From contig USCC01000003.1 of the NCBI GenBank assembly GCA_900553035.1, positions 1 to 51,929 on the forward strand: a DNA stretch of 51,929 bases, read 5' to 3'. This stretch comes from an uncultured Rhodospirillaceae bacterium. Lineage in GTDB: Bacteria > Pseudomonadota > Alphaproteobacteria > CAAGCB01 > CAG-977. Of the stretch, positions 9,208 to 22,645 are shown in pieces. The translations under genes were made by a program, and so were the position numbers. Every line of letters starts with the position of its first letter. Positions within the stretch are counted from its first letter, which is position 1. Under the pieces are notes generated by a model, which saw nothing but the letters and a program-made list of their open reading frames with translations, had not been told where the DNA came from and searched no databases.

Positions 9208-9708
9208 ATGAACATGAAGAACGAAAAAATCTTTTATTACAAATTTGAACCGATCAACGCATGGTTTGTTTTCAACACTGCTCTGCTGATCGTCCTGCTT
9301 TACGGAAGCTTCCGATGTCCGTTTCTGCTCTCTTGGTGGCAGACACAAGTGTTATGGGACGGGGCGGTGTTTTCCGTGCTGGCGTGGGGGTACAAATACC
9401 TGCTGAAACACCGGGCGGCTGTGATTGATGACGAGGCCGTCACCATTGACCATTGCCGTCCGCTTCCGTGGGCGGACATCCGAGCCGCCGAAGAGAAAAC
9501 CGTGAAATGCGGACTGCGTAAATACAGGGTGATTGTCCTGGAGCCGAAAGAGGGGATTGATTACAGGTACAATTTCCTGCAAAAGCACAATTGCCGGTTT
9601 TCCCCTTTTTCAATTCCGCTTTACGGGATTCTCTCGGATGAGGATATCGCGGAAATAAAAAGGCTTATTTCCGAAAAAGTCGGTCCTGTCCGGACGGCGG
9701 AAGAATAA
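9208..9708 (+). CDS. Hypothetical membrane protein
   Basis: 166 aa with two predicted N-terminal TM helices and a soluble C-terminal half. Last gene before terminator 9723-9748. Confidence 0.55.
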   Translation: MNMKNEKIFYYKFEPINAWFVFNTALLIVLLYGSFRCPFLLSWWQTQVLWDGAVFSVLAWGYKYLLKHRAAVIDDEAVTIDHCRPLPWADIRAAEEKTVKCGLRKYRVIVLEPKEGIDYRYNFLQKHNCRFSPFSIPLYGILSDEDIAEIKRLISEKVGPVRTAEE

Positions 9709-11172: not shown

Positions 11173-12231
11173 TCATTTCAGATTTTTTTTGAAAAACGCT
11201 TCCAGCTTTCCAAACGGAATGAGGTCAACGCGGTCATACAGATCGACATGGCCTGCTTCGGGAACGATCACCAGTTCTTTTGGTTCGATAGCACGCCGGT
11301 AGGCCTCCTGACTGAACTCAATCGAATGAGCCTTTTCCCCGGTGATGAACAGAAGCGGCCGCGGCGAGATCGTTTCAATGTCATTGAACGGATAGAAGTT
11401 CATGAATTTGGTGTTGCTGCTCAGCGTCGGATGGGTCGTCTGTTCGGAAGACGCGCCTGCCGGTGTGAACTCACCTCTGGGCGTGCGGTAGAACTCAAAG
11501 AATTCCCGTTCGATCGGCGTCGTGTTTTCATTGATTTCATGGACGGTTCCGCTGGTATATTTTCTTTTGCCGCCCGTAAATTCGGCGTACCGCTGTTCGG
11601 CGGCTTCGGCGATAATCTTTTTTCTCTGTTCCAGAGAGAGAGACTTGTTCAGTCCGTGACGGCTGGCCGATCCCATATCGTACATGCTGACGGTCGCAAC
11701 GGCTTTGAGGCGGGGATCTATTTTGGCCGCGCTGATGGCAAAGCTTCCACTGCCGCAGATTCCGATCACTCCGATTCCGTCCGGATCAACGAACGGCCTT
11801 GTCCCCAGATAATCTGCCGCCGCGCTGAAGGCTTCCGCGTACATGTCGGGAGAAACGCTGTTGCGGGGCGTGCCGCCGCTTTCTCCCCAGAAGGGGAGGT
11901 CTATGGCCAGGGTGACAAAGCCTTTTTCCGCCATTTTCGTCGCGTAAAGATTCGCGCTCTGCTCCTTGACGGCTCCCATGGGGTGCCCGACAACGATTGC
12001 CGGAAGCTTTTTCTTTCCGTCAAAGTCCTTCGGCATGAAAAGATTTCCCGCAATATTCATGTCGTACTGGTTTTTGAAGGTCACTTTCTGCAGGGTGACT
12101 TTGTCGCTTGTGTAAAAGTTATCTGCATCTTTCGGCATGTCTGCTCCTGAGGCGGCGGATGTTGATAAAAGAACTCCAAACAGGGCCGTCAGAACAGGTC
12201 TGGCGGCAGAATGCGGTTTGTTTGTCGGCAT
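11173..12231 (-). CDS. Secreted alpha/beta hydrolase (dienelactone-hydrolase-like)
   Basis: Signal peptide MPTNKPHSAARPVLTALFGVLLSTSAASGA. Nucleophile-elbow-like GVIGICGSGSF. C-terminal HVDLYD region. The opposite-strand 347-aa ORF is Arg-rich shadow. Confidence 0.8.
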   Translation of the reverse strand: MPTNKPHSAARPVLTALFGVLLSTSAASGADMPKDADNFYTSDKVTLQKVTFKNQYDMNIAGNLFMPKDFDGKKKLPAIVVGHPMGAVKEQSANLYATKMAEKGFVTLAIDLPFWGESGGTPRNSVSPDMYAEAFSAAADYLGTRPFVDPDGIGVIGICGSGSFAISAAKIDPRLKAVATVSMYDMGSASRHGLNKSLSLEQRKKIIAEAAEQRYAEFTGGKRKYTSGTVHEINENTTPIEREFFEFYRTPRGEFTPAGASSEQTTHPTLSSNTKFMNFYPFNDIETISPRPLLFITGEKAHSIEFSQEAYRRAIEPKELVIVPEAGHVDLYDRVDLIPFGKLEAFFKKNLK

Positions 12232-15510: not shown

Positions 15511-15993
15511 TTAACGGACATGATAAGTTTGTGATTCTTTTTTTCCAATCTCATCAAATTTCTGCTTCATCAAATCAGAAAACAAGGTGGTCAACCGCAC
15601 CAGCTCAGCAATGTCTTCTTTTTTTGCCAACTCAATCATCGCATCAACTTCGGCATTCGCCGCAGGTGGAATAATTTTTTCAGCGAAGTCATATCCTTTT
15701 TTAGTAAAGAAAATAATTTTATTGCGCCTGTCCTCAGGAGCTTCGATAAGTGTCACATATCCCAATTTGAAAAATTTTTTCACAATCGCACTGATTGTTT
15801 GCTTTGTTGCCGACATCCGCTCACAAATATGGGATTGTAAGCATCCCTTGGGAGCGAACCAAATCAAATTCAACACAAATAATTCATTCGTTGTTAAATT
15901 ATGCTTTCTGGCACATTGTGTATATGCGGCGAACTGCACATCTCTGAGTCGACAATAACGATTGACATACGCCCGGATTTCTTCTTTTTCCAT
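15511..15993 (-). CDS. MarR-family transcriptional regulator
   Basis: 160 aa winged HTH (LTTNELFVLNLIW....ERMSATKQTISAIVKKFFKLGYVTL..PEDRRNKIIFFTKKG). Confidence 0.88.
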   Translation of the reverse strand: MEKEEIRAYVNRYCRLRDVQFAAYTQCARKHNLTTNELFVLNLIWFAPKGCLQSHICERMSATKQTISAIVKKFFKLGYVTLIEAPEDRRNKIIFFTKKGYDFAEKIIPPAANAEVDAMIELAKKEDIAELVRLTTLFSDLMKQKFDEIGKKESQTYHVR

Positions 15994-16037: not shown

Positions 16038-16119
16038 TTTGTACCGCAAGGTTTTATGATTGTCAATATCGATTTGTAACGCGGCGGACAAGCCCGTCTA
16101 AAGAGTGACGCGGAACAGC

Positions 16120-16301
16120 TGTAAGACGAAAGATAGTTTTATATTTTTTAAGGAAGTGGGATATAGCGGGATATATGGGGATATAACGGGATAAAAACGG
16201 CAGGAAACCTTAATTTTTCGGGCGGCGGTGATGCCGCTTTTAATTTTTTGGCGCGAGATGGTTTTAACTTTTTTTGTAAAAAACGCAGGATAGTTTTAAC
16301 T
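16120..16301 (+). repeat. attL-like array: three direct copies of an end-repeat (consensus about AACGCAGGATAGTTTTAAC)
   Basis: Copies at 16120-16143 (terminal), 16251-16268 and 16282-16300. Spacing (one terminal site, a gap, then two adjacent sites) mirrors Mu attL L1 / L2-L3. Confidence 0.5.
16158..16197 (+). repeat. Four phased 10-bp repeats GGGATATNNN in the L1-L2 spacer
   Basis: gggatatagc gggatatatg gggatataac gggataaaaa, exact 10-bp periodicity. Homologous block at 18213-18252. Confidence 0.8.
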
Positions 16302-16611
16302 TTAAAAGGTCGGGGATTTCGCCCTCATGCTTCTGCCAATGCTATTCGTGAACGGATGCGCAAAGGCGAGATGTGATTGCCCGCCGTGGCCGATTGCCGG
16401 AGCGGCTGTCGCTCAAGAGCTTGATTGTTTGCCTGAAAAAGAGTTCCCGGCCCTTTATGAATGGCTGGCCAGATTGGATAAACTTCGCGACCAATTAAAA
16501 AAGTAGCGGAGGCTTGGGCGCACCACCGCCCAAAGCCGCGAGTTACAGGCTCGCACAGATTAACTGCTCCGCACCTCTGCAGAGGCGGAGTCAAAATACG
16601 GATTAACTAAT

Positions 16612-16791
16612 ATGGAGTCAATACGTTGCCCGAAATGTAATAAGCTTTTATTCAAAGCCAATTCGGCGGAAATCGAAATCAAATGCCCCAGATGCGGCAC
16701 TTTGAACACCATAACGGTCTTGAACCGAACTAACCAAGAAAGCCCTGAGCCTCCTTTAAGTAAGGAGAAGCTTTATGAAAAAGAAAATTGA
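16612..16791 (+). CDS. com: Com-like zinc-finger translational activator (59 aa; below ORF-track cut-off)
   Basis: MESIRCPKCNKLLFKANSAEIEIKCPRCGTLNTI... matches Mu Com (MKSIRCKNCNKLLFKA...IEIRCPRC). The 3' end overlaps the methyltransferase start by 17 nt, as com overlaps mom in Mu. Confidence 0.75.
   Translation: MESIRCPKCNKLLFKANSAEIEIKCPRCGTLNTITVLNRTNQESPEPPLSKEKLYEKEN
16751..16767 (+). promoter_or_regulatory. Hairpin sequestering the methyltransferase RBS (candidate Com target)
   Basis: CTCCTT(16751-56)-taagt-AAGGAG(16762-67). AAGGAG is the RBS for ATG 16775. The stem can be extended by flanking AGC/GCT. Confidence 0.5.
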
Positions 16792-17569
16792 AACAGTGCG
16801 TGTAACACCACTTGCCCCCTATCTTGGGGGCAAGTTCCGTCTTTCAAAACGGATCATCGATAAAATCGAACAAATCCCACATAAAATTTATGCCGAACCT
16901 TTTATCGGCATGGGCGGTATTTTTCTGCGCCGAATGCAAATCCCAAAAGCCGAAGTCATCAACGATATTAACGGCGAATTGGTCAACCTGTATCGGATTG
17001 TTCAGCGGTATCCGGAAGAACTCTGCCGTTCAATCAAGTTCCGATTGGCCGCCAGACAGGAATTTGAACGGTTAAGCAAAATCCCGCCCGAAACGCTGAC
17101 AGACATTGAACGCGCCGCCCGCTTCCTTTATTTGCAAAGCGTCGCTTTCGGCGGAAAAGTGACGGGGCAGTCGTTCGGCGTATCCATCGACCGTCCGGCG
17201 CGGTTTAACTTTGTAAAAATGCAGGAACGGATTCGCAATGTCGCCGAACGCTTGGCAAGCGTTACCATTGAACGAATGGATTTTGAAAAGTTCATCACAC
17301 GTTATAATACAAAAGACACACTGTTTTATCTTGACCCGCCGTATTGGGGAAATGAAACCGACTACGGTAAAAACATCTTCTGCCGCTCCGATTTTGAACG
17401 GTTAAAAGACGTTTTAACCGGCATTAAAGGCAGATTTATTTTGTCTTTAAATGATATTCCTCAAGTCCGAGAGCTGTTTAAAAACTTTACCATCGAACAG
17501 GCCGATGTGACATATAGCATCAGTAAAGCAGGCTGTTGTCAACGAACAGAGGTGATTATAACGAACTAA
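16775..17569 (+). CDS. DNA N6-adenine methyltransferase, Dam/D12 class
   Basis: AEPFIGMGGIF (FxGxG SAM motif) and FYLDPPYWG (DPPY catalytic motif). 264 aa. Confidence 0.9.
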   Translation: MKKKIETVRVTPLAPYLGGKFRLSKRIIDKIEQIPHKIYAEPFIGMGGIFLRRMQIPKAEVINDINGELVNLYRIVQRYPEELCRSIKFRLAARQEFERLSKIPPETLTDIERAARFLYLQSVAFGGKVTGQSFGVSIDRPARFNFVKMQERIRNVAERLASVTIERMDFEKFITRYNTKDTLFYLDPPYWGNETDYGKNIFCRSDFERLKDVLTGIKGRFILSLNDIPQVRELFKNFTIEQADVTYSISKAGCCQRTEVIITN

Positions 17570-17579
17570 TAAAATAAAG

Positions 17580-17603
17580 AGGCGGTAAAAACACCGCCTT
17601 TTT
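17580..17603. terminator. Bidirectional intrinsic terminator
   Basis: aggcggt-aaaaac-accgcct followed by tttt. Sits between convergent genes ending at 17569 and 17602. Confidence 0.75.
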
Positions 17604-17883
17604 AAATTTGTCCGATAACTGTTAATTTTAAAATACCGTCCTTGTAAAAAGAAGCCTTCCACTGATCTAGACGAGACTGTTTGAGGAGACGCTCAAACTT
17701 AATCAGATACGTTTCCGAATTTTTTTCAAAAAAGTCTGCTGTGTTTATTTCGGCATAGGAAATTAAAGAAGAAAGGCTATTTTTCATGAGGCGTTCAAAA
17801 ACATCCAGCAGATATTCGCGTTCACTTTTATTGACTGTGTCGTTCGTGACATCAAGTATATCAACTGCTTTTAAAGCTCTCAT
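17602..17883 (-). CDS. Hypothetical protein (93 aa), AT-rich
   Basis: Intact ORF with plausible helical composition. No family recognised. Confidence 0.45.
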   Translation of the reverse strand: MRALKAVDILDVTNDTVNKSEREYLLDVFERLMKNSLSSLISYAEINTADFFEKNSETYLIKFERLLKQSRLDQWKASFYKDGILKLTVIGQI

Positions 17884-17979
17884 GTTTTGCTCCTTTTTCG
17901 TTATTGTGTCGATATGTTCATTGACGCTCCGTTCGTGACCGAAGTCCAGTCATTTCGAGAGGGAAACGAAAGAAAGGTG

Positions 17980-18066
17980 AGAGTCTAAAAAGAGATGTAA
18001 AAAGTGCTCTAAAAGGTCTTTAATTATTATGATTTTGCCGGTCTAAAAATGATTGTCGCGCTACAA
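17980..18066 (-). repeat. Three reverse-oriented copies of a second end-repeat variant (TTTTTAGAC type), ending ...CGCGCTACA
   Basis: gtctaaaaag (17984-), ctctaaaagg (18008-), gtctaaaaatgattgtcgcgctaca (18042-18066). The reverse complement of the last, TGTAGCGCGACAATCATTTTTAGAC, matches 16 of 25 positions of 18183-18207. Confidence 0.4.
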
Positions 18067-18178
18067 AAACGCAGGATAGTTTTAATCTAATTCTATCCTA
18101 CGTTTTGGGTATCAATGAACCGTCTGAAAAAAGTTAAAACTAAGTTGCGTTTCGGTTAAAACTATCTTGCGCGCTACA
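18062..18178 (-). repeat. attR-like array of the GATAGTTTTAAC-type repeat (one forward and three reverse copies, contiguous)
   Basis: Forward copy 18067-18085. Reverse copies 18091-18108 (forms a 14-bp-arm palindrome with the forward copy), 18133-18153 and 18157-18178 (terminal, ends CA). Confidence 0.5.
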
Positions 18179-18182
18179 ACAG

Positions 18183-18353
18183 TGTTATTTAACAGTTATA
18201 TTTAGACTAAACGGGATAGAATGGGATATACGGGGATATAACGGGATAAGGGCGGAGTTCGTGGGATTTTGATGGTGTGAAAATTTTTTTGCGCGGAATA
18301 TCTTTTTAGACTGATTTCCAAAGATTGACATTTATTTTTAGACTAATAAAGAG
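18183..18353 (+). repeat. attL-like array of main prophage: three direct TTTAGAC-type repeats
   Basis: TGTTATTTAACAGTTATATTTAGAC (18183-18207, starts TG), gcgcggaatatctttttagac (18291-18311), ttgacatttatttttagac (18333-18351). Same one-gap-two architecture as 16120-16301. Confidence 0.45.
18213..18252 (+). repeat. Four phased 10-bp GGGATA repeats (paralogue of 16158-16197)
   Basis: gggatagaat gggatatacg gggatataac gggataaggg. Shares the exact 18-mer ggggatataacgggataa with the first block. Confidence 0.8.
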
Positions 18354-20114: not shown

Positions 20115-20579
20115 ATGTCAAAGAGCTTCAAAGACACACAGACGCTTGATTTATTTGAACAGGTTTATCCTGTGCGCAGACCGCCGGTGATCTCCCACAC
20201 CGTTGATTTGAGCGGCAAGATTAAGCGTTTGGTGTCTTTGATTCTGAAAGAGAGCCCTAAAAGCAGAGAGCAGCTGGCTGCAGAAATGGCTGAAGCTATG
20301 GATTGCCCGTCTTTTAGTAAAGCGATGCTGGATAATTATTCCAGCGAAGCCAACGAGCTCCATCAAATCCCGCTATATCGTTTTATCGTCCTTGTCCGCG
20401 TTGCTCAAGCTGCATGGGCATGGGATGAACTTTTAAAAGACGATGGTTATACGGTTCTTTTCGGCGAAGAGGCTCTTTTCGCCGAACGAGGGCGCGTTCA
20501 ACAGCAGATTGAAGAACTGCGTAAGTATCAAAAAGAACTGGAAAAGTCTGCTCCGGTCAAAATCAGGAGGCGGTTATGA
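20115..20579 (+). CDS. Hypothetical early protein (154 aa)
   Basis: ORF ends in an ATGA-type overlap with the transposase start. No family recognised. Confidence 0.6.
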   Translation: MSKSFKDTQTLDLFEQVYPVRRPPVISHTVDLSGKIKRLVSLILKESPKSREQLAAEMAEAMDCPSFSKAMLDNYSSEANELHQIPLYRFIVLVRVAQAAWAWDELLKDDGYTVLFGEEALFAERGRVQQQIEELRKYQKELEKSAPVKIRRRL

Positions 20580-22645
20580 AAGAGTGGTTGTCTCCTTTGG
20601 AATTAGCAAATTTAGAACTTCCGAATTTTCCAAGAACAGAACGCGGAGTTCAGACAAAGGCCGCCCGTGAACATTGGCAATCTCGTCCCCGATGCGGTCG
20701 CGGCGGCGGCAAAGAATACAACGTATCGAGTTTACCGGCTAAGGCTAAAGAAGAATTGGCGCGGCGGTCTTTGTCAAGCGTTCCCGAACGCCGTTCAAAG
20801 GCCGTGATAGAACATCCCGACGACGCCGATTTATCCGAAGCCAAAGCATGGCAGCGTGAAACGGCGGAAGCGCGCGCGGCGGTTTTGGACGCGATTGACA
20901 ATCTGGCGGTAACGTGCGGGAAAAACAACGCGATTAAAGCCGTTTTAAACGGGCTTAAAAACGGAAGATTGGAACCGTCCTTCATTGAACTGATCCGCAA
21001 AGCGAACGCAAAGGCCGGCGAAACGATCAAACTTTCCCGCGCCAGCTTGTTTAACTGGTACAAACTGCGTGAAACGGCGGGTTTAAAAGGGTTGATGCCC
21101 ACCCCTGCGAAAGATGAACAGATCGTTGCTCCCGAATGGTTTGAAGCCTTTGCCCGTTTGTATTTCAGACCGCAAAAACCGTCATTAAATTCCTGCATTG
21201 AAATTCTGCAGGAAAATATGCCCGCACTTGCCCCCAGTTACAGGCAGGCCAAGTTTTACCTTGAAAAAATCGGCAAACTGCTGGCGAACAAGGGACGCGT
21301 CGGGGCGCGTGAGGGTAAAGCTTTTCGGGCTTATGTTTCCCGCGACGTATCGCATTTATGGCCGGGGGCGATTTATTGCGCTGACGGTCATACGTTTGAT
21401 GCGGAAATCGCGCACCCGATCCACGGCAAGCCGTTCCGTCCCGAAGTCACAACGATTATAGACGTTTATACCAGAAAAGCCGTCGGGTTCAGTTTGAATA
21501 TCGTTGAATCGACTGCGTCCGTTATGGACAGCTTGATACACGCGGTGACGACCAACGGCGTTCCCGATGTGTTTTACGTTGACAACGGGAACGGCTTTAA
21601 TAATACGACCGTAGATATGTTCTGCGCCCGTTTGGGCATCACGAAAAAGAACAGTATCGCCTACAATTCCCAAGCGCGCGGCGTGATTGAACGTCTGCAC
21701 CAGACGATTTGGGTCAAGGCGGCGAAAATGCTTCCGACTTACATGGGCAAACCGATGGATCCGGAAGCCAAGCAAAAGGTTTTTCATATTAACCGACGTG
21801 AAGTCAAACAAGACGGACGCAGTCGCCTTCTCCCCGATTGGCGGGGATTTGTGGCTTATTGCGAACGGTGCTTTGCCGCCTATAACGACCACCCGCATTC
21901 TTTTTTGCCGATTATTATTGATTCTGAAACAGGCAAAAAACGTCATATGACGCCGAACGAAGCTTGGGAAGCCGGCAATCCGGAATTTCCCGATTACCGT
22001 CCCGACGTGCTGACACCTGCGGAAATTGATGACCTGTCGCGTCCGTATGTTGTGCGTAAATGCTCCCGCTGTTTGGTCAGCCTGTTTAACAACGTGTACG
22101 GTTCGCATCTGCTGACGCATTATCACGACGAACAGGTTGCCGTCGGTTTCGACATTCATGATGCATCAAAGGTTTGGGTGCGCGAATGGGACGGGAAACT
22201 TCCGGGACGTTTAATCTGCGTTGCGCGATTTGAAGAAAATAAACGTGCCTTTATGCCTGTCGCCTATGACGACAAGAAAAAACTTGAACGGGCTCAAGGA
22301 CGGCTTGCACGTCTTGATGAACAGCAAAAAGAAGTTTTGGAAGAATTGGGACAAAGATATCTGCCCGCTCCCGAAGCTGCGCCCGTGACGGCGGAGGAAG
22401 CCGCCAAAAACGAAGAATTTTTAAAAGAATTTGAGGCTGAACAGAACGCTCGGCCCGTTGCCGATATCGATACGCCTGCGGCTCGGTTCCGCAAGGCCGT
22501 CGCTCTCCGGCAAAAACTAGAAAACGGGGAAGATATTCCCGAAGAAGACCGCCGTTGGTTCGTCAAATATTCCGAATATCCCGAATATCAGCAACGTATG
22601 GATTTTGAAGAGGATTTCGGGCTGGAAGCGGCCATTACGGCATAA
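20576..22645 (+). CDS. Mu-type DDE transposase (MuA homologue)
   Basis: 689 aa. N-terminal Mu-end/enhancer-binding-like HTH (MKEWLSPLELANL...). rve-type core with CADGHTFD, FYVDNGNGF and GVIERLHQTIW (D, D, E). Confidence 0.92.
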   Translation: MKEWLSPLELANLELPNFPRTERGVQTKAAREHWQSRPRCGRGGGKEYNVSSLPAKAKEELARRSLSSVPERRSKAVIEHPDDADLSEAKAWQRETAEARAAVLDAIDNLAVTCGKNNAIKAVLNGLKNGRLEPSFIELIRKANAKAGETIKLSRASLFNWYKLRETAGLKGLMPTPAKDEQIVAPEWFEAFARLYFRPQKPSLNSCIEILQENMPALAPSYRQAKFYLEKIGKLLANKGRVGAREGKAFRAYVSRDVSHLWPGAIYCADGHTFDAEIAHPIHGKPFRPEVTTIIDVYTRKAVGFSLNIVESTASVMDSLIHAVTTNGVPDVFYVDNGNGFNNTTVDMFCARLGITKKNSIAYNSQARGVIERLHQTIWVKAAKMLPTYMGKPMDPEAKQKVFHINRREVKQDGRSRLLPDWRGFVAYCERCFAAYNDHPHSFLPIIIDSETGKKRHMTPNEAWEAGNPEFPDYRPDVLTPAEIDDLSRPYVVRKCSRCLVSLFNNVYGSHLLTHYHDEQVAVGFDIHDASKVWVREWDGKLPGRLICVARFEENKRAFMPVAYDDKKKLERAQGRLARLDEQQKEVLEELGQRYLPAPEAAPVTAEEAAKNEEFLKEFEAEQNARPVADIDTPAARFRKAVALRQKLENGEDIPEEDRRWFVKYSEYPEYQQRMDFEEDFGLEAAITA

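Follow-up and report, generated by a model that had tools for sequence, protein, structure and literature searches.

Several systems derived from or related to phage Mu resemble the locus studied here. Laboratory mini-Mu elements are Mu derivatives carrying attL and attR that are mobilised in trans by MuA/MuB. Defective Mu-like prophages, as found in Neisseria and considered in 'grounded prophage' reviews (PMC3898611, PMC6379469), are inherited vertically and have lost replication and structural genes. The present analysis deals with a discrete element of 2,059 bp, with a repeat array at either end, that occupies positions 16120-18178 of contig USCC01000003.1 from an uncultured Rhodospirillaceae bacterium; the window, that is the whole stretch of DNA analysed, comprises 51,929 nucleotides. 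With a probability of roughly 0.7, we consider this element to be a non-autonomous remnant left by a transposable Mu-like phage, whose ends are called type A below. Like a laboratory mini-Mu, the element has TG...CA termini, a 5-bp target duplication (observed in solo copies), an L1 site apart from L2-L3, contiguous R sites, no transposase gene and a size of about 2 kb. Unlike a laboratory mini-Mu, it arose naturally and is fixed at one locus; it also keeps cargo of the phage right end (o-spanin, com, dam, orf93) and a right-end stub of heterologous origin. It shares vertical inheritance and the loss of replication and structural genes with defective Mu-like prophages, but seems to differ from them in keeping both complete end arrays and an intact duplication, and in recording the nested insertion of a second end type. 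Decayed prophages are an ordinary category. Here, the combination of two complete end arrays, a perfect duplication, one internal deletion and a nested insertion by a second end-specificity class makes the element an unusually clean natural mini-Mu.

The element starts at 16120 with TGTAAGACGAAAGATAGTTTTA and its right tip (18157-18178) reads TAAAACTATCTTGCGCGCTACA. Positions 16120-16141 match the reverse complement of this tip at 18 of 22 positions, thus forming imperfect inverted repeats with TG...CA termini. These features, as well as the repeats, the forward/reverse pair on the right side, the flanks and the 4-bp gap before the next TG, lie where the initial annotation had placed them. In the window, the flanks read ACAGC (16115-16119) on the left and ACAG+T (18179-18183) on the right. 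In assemblies without the big prophage that follows the element in the window, a perfect 5-bp duplication, ACAGC, is found on both sides; in the solo copy of L001 the two duplication copies are at 9341-9345 and 11405-11409, and L083 is likewise flanked. To the right of the tip, solo strains read CTACA/ACAGC/CTAAAAAG whereas the window reads CTACA/ACAG/TGTTATTT (slashes mark joints). Because solo and prophage-bearing contigs diverge after ACAG, the 4-bp 'spacer' is the element's own right duplication copy, truncated. As had been proposed, the element is internally deleted and possesses ends and a target duplication of its own.

The exact Dam protein of the element is present on many human-gut metagenome contigs and in one metagenome-assembled genome (MAG; GCA_900765515.1). 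The element occurs alone, without prophage, at the same marR/tRNA-Glu locus in L001-L008, L035 and L083. This solo state, which the initial annotation had suggested looking for, is represented by at least 10 independent assemblies as compared to 4 with the prophage (the window, L009/L087, L010 and L089), the latter being the same as the solo contigs up to ACAG and then continuing with TGTTATTT. All strains differ by at most 0.1% at the locus. Every contig with the exact Dam, MarR or DUF1189 protein shows this one locus; no second locus appeared either in the one metagenome scan made, with the host flank, which gave one more solo copy. From these sequences, the prophage is read as a later arrival in a few strains, the alternative being its precise loss from the others. 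A derivation of the solo strains by homologous deletion between two com-dam copies was rejected, as it would remove the type-A attR, which solo strains keep.

The repeats of the element and those of the adjacent prophage belong to two different types, a point missed by the initial annotation, as was the type-B right end located inside the element (17963-18065). Type A, in the element, corresponds to CGCAGGATAGTTTTAAC and type B, in the adjacent prophage, to ATnTTTTTAGAC. With at most 3 mismatches, the 17-mer CGCAGGATAGTTTTAAC occurs five times in the 51.9-kb window, always within the element (16252, 16284 and 18070 forward; 18133 and 18155 reverse), for a chance expectation of about 0.10; none of 100 shuffles reached five. 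No copy of the motif was found in the rest of the window, prophage part included. The terminal L1 is a sixth, more diverged, type-A copy. The layout of these presumptive transposase-binding sites follows the Mu pattern, with L1 apart from L2-L3 and contiguous right-end sites, and is non-random on statistical grounds. Coordinates of all features are given in Table 1.

Table 1. Features of the type-A element and of its immediate borders, in window coordinates.
Feature	Position	Strand	Remarks
Left 5-bp target duplication copy, ACAGC	16115..16119	.	solo copies read ACAGC/TG...CA/ACAGC
Type-A left end (attL-like)	16120..16306	+	L1 16120-16141; 4x GGGATA, 10-bp-phased, ~16158-16200; L2 16251-16268; L3 16282-16300; colinear with type-B left end 18183-18347
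Internal deletion junction, 12 nt	16307..16318	.	between left-end unit and lysis-gene remnant
i-spanin-like 63-aa lysis gene, 3' remnant (...RPHASANAIRERMRKGEM*)	16319..16376	+	same C-terminus just upstream of com in L041
o-spanin-like lipoprotein open reading frame (ORF), 59 aa, MLLPMLFVNGC...	16327..16506	+	assigned from gene position and lipobox
com-upstream control region	16507..16611	+	nearly invariant in 5 phages
com, zinc-ribbon translational regulator	16612..16791	+	PF10122 Zn_ribbon_Com, E = 7e-13; phrog_13819 gpCom
D12-class N6-adenine DNA methyltransferase, Dam-like, 264 aa, intact	16775..17569	+	PF02086, E = 2e-31
Bidirectional terminator hairpin between dam and orf93	17580..17599	.	
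orf93, cargo gene in variable slot between dam and attR	17602..17883	-	
Foreign type-B right-end stub, 103 bp	17963..18065	+	reversed ATnTTTTTAGAC-type sites, ending ...GGTCTAAAAATGATTGTCGCGCTACA
Type-A right end (attR-like)	18066..18178	+	palindrome 18066-18106; R2 18133-18152; R1 18155-18178, ending CA; colinear with full type-A right ends L019, L041, L045, L050
ACAG, first 4 nt of right duplication copy, shortened by later prophage insertion	18179..18182	.	
Type-B left end of intact prophage (neighbour, outside the mini element)	18183..18347	+	L1 18183-18210; GGGATA cluster 18213-18255; L2 ~18298-18315; L3 ~18330-18347; TGTTA... terminus common to L084, L085

The termini of both types could be positioned by comparison with full phages. 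The type-A right terminus was fixed with the L019 phage compared at five different host sites: the palindrome (AAAACGCAG..CTGCGTTTT) is followed by AAAAAAGTTAAAACTAAGTTGCGTTT, then by ..CTGCGCGCTACA/host. Another phage, at four sites, fixed the type-B right terminus, ...GTCTAAATATAATTGTCGCGCTACA/host. The forward/reverse palindrome at 18066-18106 is kept in four independent full-phage right ends. On the left, the type-A end is homologous to relics in L041 (2404-2510) and L019 (9358-9414, reversed), the homology with L041 stopping after AACTTTAAA (16306). Type-B left ends of the window, L084 and L085 all read TGTTA... from the first base, those of L084 and L085 starting with TGTTAC..., and have unrelated upstream flanks. 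This common start base next to unrelated DNA confirms 18183 as the left terminus of the prophage, from which the element is separate, as initially annotated. The left ends of the two types are colinear: after a terminal site come four GGGATA phased by 10 bp, then some 50 bp of spacer and two further sites. Though the sites differ, the GGGATA cluster is 89% identical over 37 nt between them. In all left ends seen, L1 and L2 are separated by a stretch with four units in 10-bp phase (16158-16200 and 18213-18255 in the window, 3930-3975 in L084, 63-100 in L085). The presence of this cluster in both left-end types makes it a candidate packaging (pac) or DNA-bending element. The pac site of Mu itself has been placed in the corresponding part of attL. 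In sequence, the end arrays of the element fall within the natural variation of functional relatives. Two diverged sets of presumptive transposase sites placed side by side at one locus, on otherwise mosaic, recombining phages, offer a ready system for the study of transposase-end specificity.

Homology to left ends stops at 16306, and homology to the spanin/com/dam region of every relative begins at 16319 or 16320, within the last codons of the i-spanin-like gene and 8 nt before the o-spanin ATG. With such break points, a single internal deletion, with TTTAAAAGGTCGGGGATTTCGCCCTCATGC at its junction, explains the loss of about 35 kb. Beyond the junction, the backbone made of o-spanin, com, D12 Dam, orf93 and attR is colinear with the right ends of full type-A phages. 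In L050, a type-A phage from a rumen MAG, the succession from the end of dam to the terminator, the orf93 homologue with its upstream region and the right tip is colinear with the element except for one 103-bp block, present in the window (17963-18065) and absent from L050. The block shows homology to type-B phage right ends (L025, L047, L049, L076 and L099); reversed type-B sites are found at 17982-18057, followed by CGCGCTACA ending at 18065, and the 17981-18065 part is homologous to the type-B right terminus fixed by insertion-site comparison. Its absence from L050 and its type-B homology identify the block as a solo type-B right-end stub. The last bases of the stub are precisely CA, and the type-A attR starts with its first conserved base immediately after them. 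Such an exact contact is the signature of a joint made by a transposase, and the stub has the appearance of a footprint left by a previously nested phage. A type-B origin of the whole interior was considered but dropped, since L050 shows that the dam-orf93-attR backbone is type-A-like and that only the 103 bp are foreign. It was also unnecessary to suppose that the stub had lost one 22-bp repeat, L076 having a natural single-copy version. The 2.2-kb contig of L076 carries two type-B right ends face to face, 530 bp apart (460-491 and 1020-1070).

The spanin/com/dam module is mosaic across type-A and type-B phages and thus does not identify the donor. Structural modules are also uncoupled from the end type, as indicated by baseplate J: compared to that of the type-B main prophage, the protein of the type-A phage L019 is 90% identical and that of the type-B phage L025 only 35%. 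No mobility gene was found in 16120-18178 from the ORF list and family scans, and ORFs together with Pfam and PHROG scans of the same region gave no MuA transposase, MuB, repressor or structural gene. The relic is therefore non-autonomous. Its content is nevertheless larger than 'exactly' the ends and the modification module announced by the initial annotation, since the o-spanin ORF, the 3' remnant of i-spanin, orf93 and the 103-bp type-B stub are also kept.

The host site also carries traces of past insertions. In solo strains, the gene order is marR, the element, tRNA-Glu(ctc), three DUF1189 genes and then type VI secretion system (T6SS) genes; upstream, to about 16000, the window encodes a chromate transporter, a nitroreductase and MarR (15511-15993, minus strand). 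An old type-B R1 relic (AAAAAAGTCTAAATATAATTGTCGCGCGACA/GGGGGC) is found just before tRNA-Glu in all strains, so that the type-A element sits within an older type-B right-end remnant. Degenerate type-B-like sites were also noticed in the host flanks (GTCTAAAGAG and CAGCCTAAAAAG, the latter spanning the target), and because of them the reconstructed empty site resembles an old type-B right end. The same flanks contain an inverted repeat, TTGTAACGCGGCG / CGCCGCGTTACAA; the inverted repeat and the type-B-like sites were noticed at 16074-16086 and 16096-16105 in the window and at 11424-11436 in L001.

The history that seems likeliest for the locus is the following. A type-A phage would have transposed into ACAGC between marR and tRNA-Glu, inside the older degenerate type-B right-end relic. 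A type-B Mu-like phage would have inserted 113 bp inside the type-A right tip and later been lost, leaving its terminal 103 bp. Through a single large internal deletion, the last part of the lysis cassette would have become fused to the DNA immediately following L3. The repressor, the transposase, MuB and all structural genes would thereby have been lost, and only attL, o-spanin, com, dam, orf93, the stub and attR kept. The nested insertion and loss on the one hand, and the internal deletion on the other, may have occurred in either order. The relic would then have passed vertically to all sampled strains and, in one sublineage, an intact type-B phage would have transposed 4 bp outside its right tip. 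At present, the relic is unable to move alone; its end arrays look intact and would be usable only by a type-A transposase acting in trans, and com-dam would probably stay silent unless the late activator is provided by a resident Mu-like phage.

Some observations weigh against this history. No complete type-A left end was recovered: scans of IMG/VR with the type-A L1 and with the L2-L3 segment gave nothing, and those with the type-B L1 and with the deletion junction gave no matches. The pairing of attL with attR hence relies on the shared motif and on the L019 and L041 relics. Look-ups of P0121, a close MuA relative, returned contigs that begin inside the left end. No empty site, also suggested for search by the initial annotation, was found, and it is the duplication only that speaks for the insertion event. 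In addition, the left boundary of the stub coincides with the point where L050 resumes, which requires a deletion that took no type-A DNA; it is possible that an AAAC microhomology explains this boundary. A divergence of at most 0.1% between strains allows no conclusion on selection for com-dam. Finally, decay in situ and formation elsewhere followed by mobilisation in trans predict the same sequence at the locus.

Other explanations may be envisaged. The element could have been kept for a benefit to the host, either as a domesticated module (an orphan Dam/orf93 cassette) or as a landing pad, a harmless preferred target that would divert incoming Mu-like phages from genes. Such a role, compatible with a relic origin, would agree with the presence of the element in all sampled strains, with the intact com and dam, with the defence-type genes that occupy the cargo slot in relatives and with the independent type-B insertions or footprints, two at the least and probably three, that are located no farther than about 60 bp from the right tip. 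We nonetheless hold it to be rather unlikely. At a divergence of at most 0.1%, intactness may just mean youth, orf93 of the solo strain L005 is broken by an 89-bp deletion without visible consequence, expression of dam finds no support, and the hotspot may equally be attributed to the tRNA-proximal region or to nearby palindromes.

An active non-autonomous mini-Mu, similar to a MITE (miniature inverted-repeat transposable element) or to a satellite, appears still less probable. In that case, the element would have formed elsewhere, transposed to the present site and still be mobilised, and perhaps packaged, by a helper Mu-like phage providing transposase in trans. Its end arrays are complete and within the variation of functional relatives, its 5-bp duplication is perfect, full type-A phages circulate in related gut Alphaproteobacteria, and the GGGATA cluster in common with the neighbour could serve packaging. 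However, as described above, every contig with the exact Dam, MarR or DUF1189 protein shows one locus, at variance with the multiple copies, at different sites and each with a duplication, expected of a MITE-like element. No mini version was seen among 39 Dam-related loci of species-representative genomes, and none of the relatives with visible upstream DNA is one; where this visible DNA extends to about 7 kb or more, as in 10 relatives, baseplate or tail genes are always present. As for co-resident phages, the single one seen has type-B ends, and since the part of this neighbour within the window has type-B sites only, mobilisation of the element by it is doubtful. Moreover, the element contains no integrase, replication, helper-interference or other helper-manipulating genes, the traits of phage satellites such as P4, PICI and PLE. 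The satellite mobilisable in trans of the initial annotation is thus not upheld. That the element would belong to the adjacent prophage (with a left end at 16120 and com-dam as left-end cargo, a scenario also envisaged in that annotation), or be a rearranged or tandem duplicate of the prophage ends, has hardly any chance of being correct in spite of the mere 4 bp between the two, of the GGGATA cluster in both left ends and of the com homologue, 85% identical, of the main prophage, because solo copies have their own perfect duplication, the repeat types differ with no type-A motif in the prophage part of the window, independent type-B phages (L084, L085) confirm terminus 18183, and identity between the com-dam DNA of the element and the copy of the prophage reaches only about 85%.

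A second question raised by the relic is whether insertions cluster at resident Mu-type ends. Cis-immunity is the MuB-dependent avoidance of targets near the ends; wild-type Mu is reported to leave a zone of about 1.5 kb around its ends free of insertions, a zone that can extend to 5 kb or more (PMC7350765). The neighbour prophage resembles Mu in having a MuA with a Mu-type DNA-binding domain and an AAA+ MuB-like protein. The pattern observed here is opposite to that of Mu, since insertions occur close to resident Mu-type ends, from 3-4 bp up to tens of bp away. In L099, a full type-B attR is joined 23 bp to the right of the insertion point of the window, with the junction CA/AAAAAAGTC. In L102, the relic R1 is replaced by a modern type-B R1 followed by GCGAC, which looks like the product expected from a phage insertion at GCGAC and a subsequent deletion via the two R1 copies. 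Other Mu-like phages show comparable situations. The type-A phage L019 adjoins the reversed type-A left-end relic already mentioned, which spans nucleotides 1-57, and the type-A phage L041 adjoins a forward relic starting from about nucleotide 59, followed by host uvrA-like and GmrSD genes. As the relics next to these two unrelated full phages are both cut within the GGGATA cluster, a few nucleotides apart, an insertion hotspot is suggested. Considering only the junctions retrieved regardless of their flanks, 3 of 21 are within 100 bp of another Mu-type end; as a rough estimate, for an assumed genome of 2.5 Mb with 10 relics, each 200 bp long, the chance of at least three would be about 7e-7.

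It is tempting to imagine, although we only propose it tentatively, that, in these gut Alphaproteobacteria, resident Mu-like end arrays attract rather than repel incoming Mu-like phages, the inverse of cis-immunity, and that the relic is a self-renewing landing pad. Phages would insert, vanish by end-to-end recombination and leave stubs. At the present locus, this idea draws on the type-A element lodged in a type-B relic, the stub 113 bp inside the tip, the prophage 4 bp outside it, L099, L102 and the alleles with 9-bp or 3-bp changes; elsewhere, it draws on the cuts in the L019 and L041 relics and on L085, where a right end, 3 bp and a left end follow each other. Should insertions prove to be clustered at resident ends, target immunity, a textbook property of Mu, would not be general among Mu-like phages, and the build-up of arrays of end stubs would be explained. 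A less exotic explanation is offered by some transposable phages of the D3112 group, which have hotspots beside palindromic BIME/REP elements (PMC5977238). As in that group, the insertions discussed here recur within a few bp, next to palindrome-containing repeats. The neighbouring repeats are, however, other Mu-like ends, and the evidence comes from natural lysogens instead of deep junction sequencing.

Several further junctions were noted. The region of about 60 bp between the right tip and tRNA-Glu has at least six alleles among strains (L001 11405-11473; L099 1-150; first 120 nt of L101-L103): the reference, a 9-bp loss, a 3-bp gain, the L099 junction, the refreshed R1 of L102 and the insertion of the window itself. 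L101 and L007 are those lacking the 9 bp (ACAGCCTAA) and L103 has the 3 extra bp. The Logan contig L085 begins (1-60) with a type-B right end (…AATTGTCGCGCTACA), AAC and a type-B left end (TGTTACTTAACAG…), a geometry that matches the right end, 4 bp and left end of the window. It could correspond to tandem prophages, to an end-adjacent insertion or to the right-end/left-end junction of a circle. A second regional hotspot is observed where type-B phages of four genomes (L027/L030 from 9087, L046 from 1644, L047 from 10980 and L049 from 11001) lie within about 120 bp in a homologous host region reading …GGCGTTATAAGGCTTTGCGCGAAACCGCC…TGAACATCCGCCC….

The intact Mu-like prophage runs from 18183 past the end of the window and contains a repressor, a Ner-like gene, MuA (20576-22645) and a MuB-like AAA+ gene, as well as genes for the head and the tail. 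Its right end was not retrieved: the contigs found through the exact proteins of two tail-fibre ORFs (240 and 223 aa), of baseplate J and of the flanking DUF1189 gene all stop before this end or start just after it. A simple insertion of the prophage predicts a type-B attR followed by AACAG/CCTAAAAAG. Contig L011 (14447-14645) stops within the com gene of the prophage, after a run of 30 nt identical to com of the relic. The relic probably breaks k-mer assemblies of the prophage right end, which would be why this end eluded retrieval. Such relics break metagenome assemblies and may make a prophage boundary seem 2 kb too long.

Between the end arrays, com and the methylase are kept from the right end of a phage, as initially proposed. 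In Mu, mom is controlled by the late activator C and by Com. As in the Mu com-mom pair, the zinc-ribbon Com gene of the relic is directly upstream of the DNA-modification gene, which it overlaps (by 17 nt). The pair has a leader that is conserved and structured, and no further conserved module follows it up to attR. Unlike in Mu, the enzyme is a D12 N6-adenine methyltransferase (PF02086) instead of Mom, and a variable cargo slot comes after it. The com leader contains a hairpin (16567-16590, CTCCGCACCTCTGCAGAGGCGGAG) kept in five phages. Its inner stem is TCTGCAGA or CGTCGACG; each version being self-complementary, the changes are compensatory. In view of this nearly invariant leader and by analogy with Mu, com-dam is probably still under phage-like control. 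Full-length homologues of Dam, 80-90% identical, are numerous, and dam belongs to the right end of a complete Mu-like prophage in all five cases examined (P0006, P0017, L041, L050 and L011, the latter with com of the main prophage). The prophages of dam-bearing relatives occupy many different host sites. Among GenBank phages, a search gave weak matches only, confined to the Dam gene, with Sinorhizobium, Burkholderia and Pseudomonas B3 phages (66-81% identity).

No match to orf93 was found in Pfam, PHROGs, PADLOC or PDB sequences. A homologue with 56% amino acid identity occupies the same slot of the type-A phage L050. In other phages, the slot between dam and attR contains a TIR-domain (CAP12/Pycsar-effector-like) gene (L041, 1544-2236) or a lambda ea8.5-like gene (L019, 8872-9156), and it is empty in the type-B phage L025. 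The deletion of L005 takes the start of orf93 (window 17851-17929, corresponding to L001 11077-11155). As for the 59-aa lipoprotein ORF, it has no Pfam or PHROG match, and its gene position and lipobox make it a presumed o-spanin. Its residues 7-58 share 82-92% amino acid identity with ORFs located just upstream of com in L041-L049. In L007, 14 clustered substitutions all lie within this ORF (window 16337-16449, corresponding to L001 9563-9675) and the rest of the element has 2 differences only; the cluster resembles a patch of gene conversion whose donor was another Mu-like phage.

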